From NCBI GenBank assembly GCA_965208325.1, contig OZ242326.1, forward strand, positions 3,712,001-3,776,000: a DNA stretch of 64,000 nucleotides, in the 5' to 3' direction. The translations under genes and the position numbers were made by a program. This DNA comes from Candidatus Poribacteria bacterium. GTDB lineage: Bacteria; Poribacteria; WGA-4E; PCPOR2b. Each line of letters opens with the position of its first letter. Within the stretch, counting starts at the first letter, position 1. A model generated the notes under the pieces. It was not told the DNA's origin. It ran no database searches and worked only from the letters and a program-made list of their open reading frames with translations. Positions 37,845 through 38,153 of this stretch are shown piece after piece.

Positions 37845-38153
37845 GTGCCTGGCGAAAGCTAGGCACCCTATGGGATAGTGCATCAGGTGGGGTTACCCCA
37901 TGACCCCCATAAGTGGTACGGCGAACTAAAGGCGTAACCGTACCAGCCTGATGTGCTGTCCCGCCTTGCGGCGGATGAGATGGTCTCCGTTTCCAGTTAC
38001 GCCAGCATTTTTCTAGTGAATACTGGAATTTCTGGGACGCGATGGCTACCATCATCGTAAGGGGGTCATCCGCCGCCACCATCGTATGGCGAGTGACGGT
38101 GCTATACTTCCTCCCGTACAGTTACTTTGTACGCCAGAAACCGTCACTTGCCA
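37845..38153 (+). ncRNA. Candidate structured ncRNA (~310 nt, four domains, possible pseudoknot/switch)
   Basis: Four consecutive long stems with G-U but no A-C mismatches on the + strand; GAAA tetraloop. Confidence 0.55.

Follow-up and report, generated by a model that had tools for sequence, protein, structure and literature searches.

This locus raises the question of what kind of element fills a single long spacer in an otherwise closely packed array of protein genes. In the window, i.e., the whole 64,000-nt stretch of Candidatus Poribacteria DNA analysed here (its genome is called G000 below), positions 30250-44759 hold a minus-strand array of at least six gene pairs, each made up of a signal-peptide partner protein of ~240 aa and an HExxGH metallopeptidase of ~230 aa. 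Two GH108 endolysin-like (phrog_315) and two holin-like gene copies are interspersed among the pairs, a layout that recalls endolysin/holin-dependent protein export. A paralog of the metallopeptidase next to the spacer (36393-37082) weakly matches Peptidase_M10. Proteins of the array are 35–49% identical between species, as compared with 94–97% for the flanking genes. The other inter-pair junctions measure 12–21 nt and contain only a Shine-Dalgarno sequence, as opposed to 367 nt at the element, which was therefore regarded as an insertion into an operon-like junction. Read along the minus strand, the element starts 15 nt past the stop codon of a peptidase gene and ends 43 nt before the start of a partner gene. 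The features of the locus are as follows, with structures taken from the predicted fold.

37082..37801, minus strand: partner gene, encoding a 239-aa signal-peptide protein without a Pfam family, with paralogs in the array and in relatives
37802-38168: spacer of 367 nt between two minus-strand genes
37802..37844: left flank, with the Shine-Dalgarno sequence of the partner gene (37808-37814, minus strand)
37845..37866, plus strand: H1, 5' hairpin of module A, 9 bp with a GAAA loop (stem 37845-53/37858-66)
37872..37962, plus strand: D2, three-way junction of module A (RNA fold and covariance-model match in the sister species)
37872-88/37946-62, plus strand: P1, closing helix of D2, 17 bp
37889-37907, plus strand: P2 of D2, a G-run/C-run hairpin (RNA fold)
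37914-21/37938-45, plus strand: P3 of D2 (RNA fold)
37968..38076, plus strand: D3, equal to module B, an 11-bp outer stem (37968-78/38066-76) around an extended irregular hairpin
38087..38153, plus strand: D4, a 14-bp stem (38087-100/38140-53) with an internal loop and a 7-bp hairpin inside
38154..38168: right flank, 15 nt from D4 to the peptidase stop codon, without a terminator-like T run
38169..38945, minus strand: metallopeptidase gene with an HExxGH motif, a member of the array

Other parts of the array show signs of turnover. The gap at 39589-40175 is decayed and, when translated, corresponds to the C-terminal half of one of the partner proteins (blastx E-value 2e-13). The stretches 40176-40604, 40925-41278, and 42003-42362 are decayed or truncated, and several neighbouring ORFs cover only the N- or the C-terminal part of a partner or peptidase gene. 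In contigs of public sequencing runs, a second variant of the holin-like region at 35463-35850 was seen with 5–8 differences per ~100 nt, which probably reflects strain variation or the paralogous copy at 30250-30777, and a 96-nt skip was seen at 35850-35947.

Four sets of stems, a GAAA-capped hairpin included, had been proposed in the preliminary description of the spacer, and all of them were recovered at the positions listed above, the proposed 16-bp stem at 37872-87/37947-62 being contained in P1. Folding of 37802-38168 as plus-strand RNA gave a minimum free energy (MFE) of −153.5 kcal/mol, compared with −112.2 ± 5.4 for dinucleotide shuffles (z −7.65; 0/100 shuffles equally good), and folding of the minus strand gave −136.7 (z −4.02); the spacer thus folds better than shuffles on both strands, and more so on plus. 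With DNA parameters, z was −7.24 on the plus and −5.43 on the minus strand. In a 300-nt sliding scan of the 64 kb, the element was the top plus-strand segment after GC regression, and its segment ranked ~23rd among 7238 ORF-poor 160-nt segments of the 4.7-Mb genome (residual z −3.96). A compositional artefact, i.e., a GC-rich spacer that folds well by chance, could appeal to the GC content of 0.54–0.57 at the element against a window mean of 0.47, but is effectively refuted by the shuffles and by a homolog with fully compensated changes (see below).

The strand from which the structure is read could be assigned from its mismatches. In the plus-strand MFE structure, 91 pairs are Watson–Crick and 12 are G-U, with one 1x1 C-A mismatch; on the minus strand, the fold includes 8 G-U pairs along with two A-C mismatches. 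The earlier observation that the stem mismatches are G-U on the plus strand and A-C on the minus strand was upheld, with six of them lying in well-defined stems. Two U-G wobbles in P1 are moreover identical in the homolog from the sister species and would be A-C on the opposite strand, which together with the G-U bias backs plus as the sense strand. The element is accordingly oriented opposite to both flanking genes, i.e., antisense to the array, as had been described. Hence, the spacer is a genuine, strongly structured, strand-specific, and previously undescribed non-coding element.

Since the minus strand is also folded well above shuffles, a role in the mRNA of the array was weighed, in which the spacer would serve as an intercistronic or 3'-UTR exonuclease barrier, or as an RNase III/E site, and uncouple neighbouring pairs. 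The start of the block 15 nt past a stop codon and the separate Shine-Dalgarno sequence of the next gene are consistent with this, as is a second structured spacer 1.5 kb from the main element. The latter (36140-36375) begins ~20 nt past the stop codon of the peptidase gene 36393-37082 and folds into a unique four-way junction with a G-run/C-run closing stem and an inner hairpin of >20 bp; its RNA fold reaches z −6.25 on the plus and −3.78 on the minus strand with little G-U strand bias, no paralog was found in the genome, and 36100-36392 had no BLAST homolog in the relatives G001–G003. The long stems of the main element, however, carry mismatches that pair on plus and not on minus, the two conserved wobbles are shared with a homolog that is read in the same direction as its gene, and the remaining junctions of the array have no such block. 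A minus-strand function of this kind is therefore considered unlikely.

Known RNA families were searched with covariance models, among them those of self-cleaving ribozymes, riboswitches, omega-RNA/HEARO-type RNAs, Y RNA, and 6S RNA. Rfam 15 at gathering score returned nothing at the element when applied to the whole window, the matches elsewhere being a full-length cobalamin riboswitch (27721-27919, 103 bits, minus strand) and tRNAs (an array of six tRNA genes at 15926-16585, minus strand). At E ≤ 10 over 37600-38400, the sole match was a plant-virus UTR with 14.7 bits, as compared with a gathering score of 100, and the module loci of the sister species likewise gave nothing relevant in Rfam; the initial statement that the element could not be matched to a known family is thus borne out. 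ARAGORN predicted 0 tRNA or tmRNA genes over 35800-38400. A hammerhead ribozyme was rejected, because a core-like heptamer is present at 37812-37818 but the adjoining helix cannot form (judged by eye) and no hammerhead match was obtained. More generally, a ribozyme and a regulatory RNA had both been suggested at the outset; no ribozyme family was matched at E ≤ 10, and a regulatory RNA fits better, because the modules of the relative are placed as sense 5' leaders before genes. A pseudogene relic of an array gene was also discarded (best blastx E-value 0.2 against array proteins). Integron attC sites are single hairpins of 57–141 nt with conserved R''/R' core sites; the structure here is branched, and a core-site pair was not seen by eye at the module ends.

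The suggestion that the element is a relic of a mobile element was examined by looking for the features of MITEs and IS ends, i.e., repeats, further copies, and target duplication, none of which was found. Flanking inverted and direct repeats were no better than expected by chance (49% and 11% of shuffles, respectively, gave matches as good), and the two ends of the element have no mutual complementarity and form no terminal inverted repeats. The element is single-copy in its genome according to blastn with word size 9, blastn-short with eight sub-segments, and nhmmer --max with two-sequence profiles, which also sets it apart from a REP/REPIN-type hairpin repeat cluster at 25237-25596 between two minus-strand genes (z −4.07 on minus) and argues against a MITE, REP, or BIME repeat. 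An inversion switch was rejected on the basis of the chance-level inverted repeats and of the contigs of four public runs from one study, in which no strand-changing joint occurred; these contigs, which can hide rare forms, showed only the identical sequence over the element and no empty-site, skipped, or inverted form across it.

Relatives were searched with single-sequence covariance models of 37840-37966 (H1 and D2, module A) and 37964-38158 (D3 and D4). Each model gave one match, both in the genome of a close sister species (G002) and at different loci: module A at G002:402003-402147 (67.1 bits, E-value 1.5e-10) and module B, i.e., D3, at G002:3754538-3754677 (34.6 bits, genome-wide E-value 1.7e-4). 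No homolog of D4 was found anywhere in the model searches, and BLAST of the element in 40 relatives as well as searches of phage and plasmid collections returned no match. Of 151 genomes of the phylum, a two-sequence model of module A matched just two, G000 and G002, and a 24-mer core of module A with up to two mismatches was likewise confined to these two among 176 Poribacteria genomes. With filters off, no match of the models was better than an E-value of 0.07 in 72 kb of syntenic arrays of G001–G003, or than 0.7 in a 38-kb set that comprised the orthologous G000 locus and the surroundings of paralogs of the two G002 genes. The element is thus very narrowly distributed (2/176 genomes searched).

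Searches with short patterns were extended to other contig collections. The exact module A 24-mer was found across genome contigs only in the G002 record, and in metagenome contigs with four matches at three loci on unrelated contigs (L035 1501-1524; L036 1501-1524 and 1994-2017; L037 589-612). These loci were rejected as relatives, as the module A model misses them and the motif appears to correspond, in reverse complement, to the 3' ends of small ORFs. In viral contigs, two module A patterns gave 0 loci and a loose module B pattern gave 75 loci, none of which was matched by the model. The metagenome and viral pattern matches were consequently treated as probable chance occurrences.

Because the modules occur singly at separate loci in G002, the ~310-nt region is best described, as judged from these matches, as a chain of separable modules rather than as one unit. 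Two details of the preliminary description are not shared by the homologs. The proposed pairing of 37900-08 with 38061-69 does exist as a 9-nt complement (12 nt at 92%), but a conserved pseudoknot was not confirmed and cannot be a feature of the family, because its two halves are separated by 3.3 Mb in the genome of the sister species. The GNRA loop was found in the window copy and is not conserved in the G002 homolog.

The two copies of module A were compared pair by pair. All 84 pair cells are standard in the alignment, with 11 pairs changed on both sides, four on one side, and none broken. Double changes affect seven of the nine pairs of H1, one pair in P1, two in P2, and one in P3, and the four one-sided changes go through G-U, three of them in P1, of which just 13/17 pairs are unchanged between the copies. 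When partners were slid by one to three columns as a control, only 36–41% of the cells remained paired. The hairpin that corresponds to H1 in G002 is longer and is likewise placed 5 nt ahead of P1, and the G002 copy itself folds strongly (z −8.87 sense, −6.84 antisense). For module B, the copies are 68% identical over 122 nt, and among 36 pairs, seven are changed on both sides, three on one side, five are unpaired, and four are gapped; the G002 copy of this module folds weakly (z −1.6). As there are two sequences per module and the alignments were fitted to the model, the compensatory changes are counts and not statistics.

Homology stops at the edges of the modules, with flanks no more alike than shuffles. 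Elsewhere, the two genomes are close to each other: a flanking sigma-factor gene is 97% identical at the nucleotide level with 73/80 four-fold sites identical, and identity across a 1-kb spacer is 90%. The copies of the modules are far more diverged than this genomic background and occupy non-orthologous positions within variable regions; they are accordingly not orthologs. The modules therefore appear to have been acquired or moved separately, with or beside accessory genes. The absence of any broken pair in the window copy implies that this copy is either recent or under selection.

These observations bear on a further explanation, namely that the element is mobile DNA after all, either a relic or cargo of a MITE, IS end, or single-strand-transposing element, whose hairpins would act in ssDNA and which would have inserted independently in the two species. 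Sharp homology edges, non-orthologous loci in genomes that are 97% identical elsewhere, insertion into a junction of normally 12–21 nt, DNA-parameter folds that are strongly non-random as well, and REP families in the same genome (e.g., the cluster at 25237-25596) would all agree with such an origin. It is nonetheless judged very unlikely in view of the single copy in the genome, the chance-level flanking repeats and lack of terminal inverted repeats, the uniform occupancy of the site in the four runs, and the phage and plasmid collections without a match.

The gene contexts in G002 are informative about what the modules may do. Each module is found in the orientation of the gene that follows, directly upstream of the Shine-Dalgarno sequence and ATG of this gene. 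For module A, 16 nt separate its end from the ATG of a lipoprotein-like gene of 236 aa; the module lies within a divergent intergenic region with promoter-like hexamers (by eye), and a CCUCC stretch 5' of its first hairpin is predicted to pair with the Shine-Dalgarno sequence, clamping the module between the two. For module B, the distance to the start of the following gene, which encodes a signal-peptide protein of 166 aa, is ~20 nt. Both downstream proteins have distant homologs in other genomes, without a Pfam family, and the genes are regarded as real because of these homologs; none of the homologs was found in G000. By sequence context, a leader position is thus seen in 2/2 cases in G002, and the window copy is not so placed. 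Beside the gene at module B, two segments (L022 467-623 and 847-1013) have many dispersed matches in G000 at 70–88% identity and presumably represent miniature repeat families.

The reading that we favour, tentatively and with a probability of roughly 0.45, is that the element belongs to a family of portable 5'-leader-type RNA modules, of which the window holds a fused A-B-D4 copy that is displaced and reversed. In G002, the modules would be transcribed as part of mRNA leaders and act there in cis, the rigid 5' structure protecting the mRNA end and setting the accessibility of the ribosome-binding site. In the window, the three modules would have been fused and inserted at an array junction in reverse relative to the flanking genes, the hypervariable array having received a leader cassette by recombination in what may be a recent acquisition; this copy would then add only generic secondary structure to the minus-strand transcript. 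It is read as a displaced leader because it is reversed within a minus-strand array and no ORF follows it on the plus strand. The window copy is accordingly probably a displaced leader and possibly an antisense RNA.

Several observations weigh against the leader reading. Two sequences per module provide no statistical covariation, and the leader position itself depends on a small sample (2/2). The module B copy of G002 has five broken pairs in addition to its weak fold, P1, at 17 bp, is too stable to suit a classical switching aptamer, and the window copy shows no decay, in contrast to what would be expected of a long-abandoned relic. No promoter or terminator was found on the plus strand, and the structured spacer at 36140-36375, likewise located behind a peptidase stop codon, may indicate that the element works in minus-strand mRNA instead.

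The modules were compared with several known systems. The E. coli ompA leader is a 5'-UTR stabiliser and translation-control leader of an exported-protein mRNA. As in leaders of this type, the G002 modules present a hairpin close to the 5' end and, behind it, a structured domain whose end immediately precedes the Shine-Dalgarno sequence of an exported-protein gene, and the hairpin sequence varies while its pairing is kept. Unlike them, the modules have no sequence or Rfam relationship to such leaders, their helices are much longer (17 bp), they are modular and located at unrelated genes, and the window copy has no gene behind it. Riboswitch aptamers resemble the modules in the three-way junction, the conserved junction and stem sequence with variable terminal loops, and the 5' leader position in G002. 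They differ in that the modules have no Rfam match, expression platform, or terminator, the P1 helix looks non-switching, the downstream genes share no metabolic theme, and the occurrence is limited to 2/176 genomes of the phylum. A generic riboswitch was rejected on the same grounds: the window copy has no downstream plus-strand ORF and no terminator, the G002 copies are followed by an ORF yet show no evident switching helix, and conservation is restricted to two genomes by both the 24-mer (2/176) and the covariance model (2/151). Among the papers searched, none linked Poribacteria to riboswitches in a relevant manner. Pneumococcal BOX, Neisseria Correia, and REP/BIME elements, which reach tens to hundreds of copies per genome, are similar in being modular chains of stable hairpins that are intergenic, near gene starts or ends, and able to affect mRNA stability; the present element, by contrast, is single-copy in each of two genomes.

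Another alternative is an independent plus-strand ncRNA or antisense gene of ~310 nt with its own promoter, which would act as antisense into 38169-38945 or in trans, for example through the exposed pyrimidine-rich D4 loop on ribosome-binding sites of the array. The sense strand is indeed plus, the helices are all intact despite the missing downstream ORF, and the internal loop of D4 holds a pyrimidine-rich, anti-Shine-Dalgarno-like stretch. Only 43 nt separate the partner start from the 5' end of the element, and a plus-strand transcript from further upstream would cover the ribosome-binding site of that gene. Like cis-antisense RNAs, the element has a sense strand opposite to the flanking genes and abuts one 3' end and the ribosome-binding site of another gene. 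Unlike them, no convincing sigma-70-like promoter and no intrinsic terminator were found on the plus strand around it, and its relatives appear to be sense-strand mRNA leaders rather than free-standing genes. The element was furthermore not found in two of the three other species of the genus or in the remaining 172 genomes of the phylum. This alternative is thus held to be rather unlikely. A broader version, in which the modules would constitute a new portable leader-cassette class in Poribacteria that moves among exported-protein genes, and the window copy would be a ~310-nt plus-strand antisense RNA controlling the peptidase array, appears quite improbable; if true, it would mean that, in a sponge symbiont, hypervariable matrixin-like peptidases with a link to endolysin/holin-type export genes are under antisense control.

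Returning to the portable leader modules, the analysis adds two small, well-defined RNA motifs, the pairing of which is kept through many compensatory changes. They adjoin fast-evolving exported-protein genes, among them an array of matrixin-like peptidases for which the sponge host is a possible target, and if the modules are regulators, they would offer a handle on the control of such accessory genes. Their covariance models can be applied to new metagenomes and metatranscriptomes of sponges. Should the window copy be no more than a displaced leader, it would document that pieces of regulatory RNA are shuffled together with gene cassettes.
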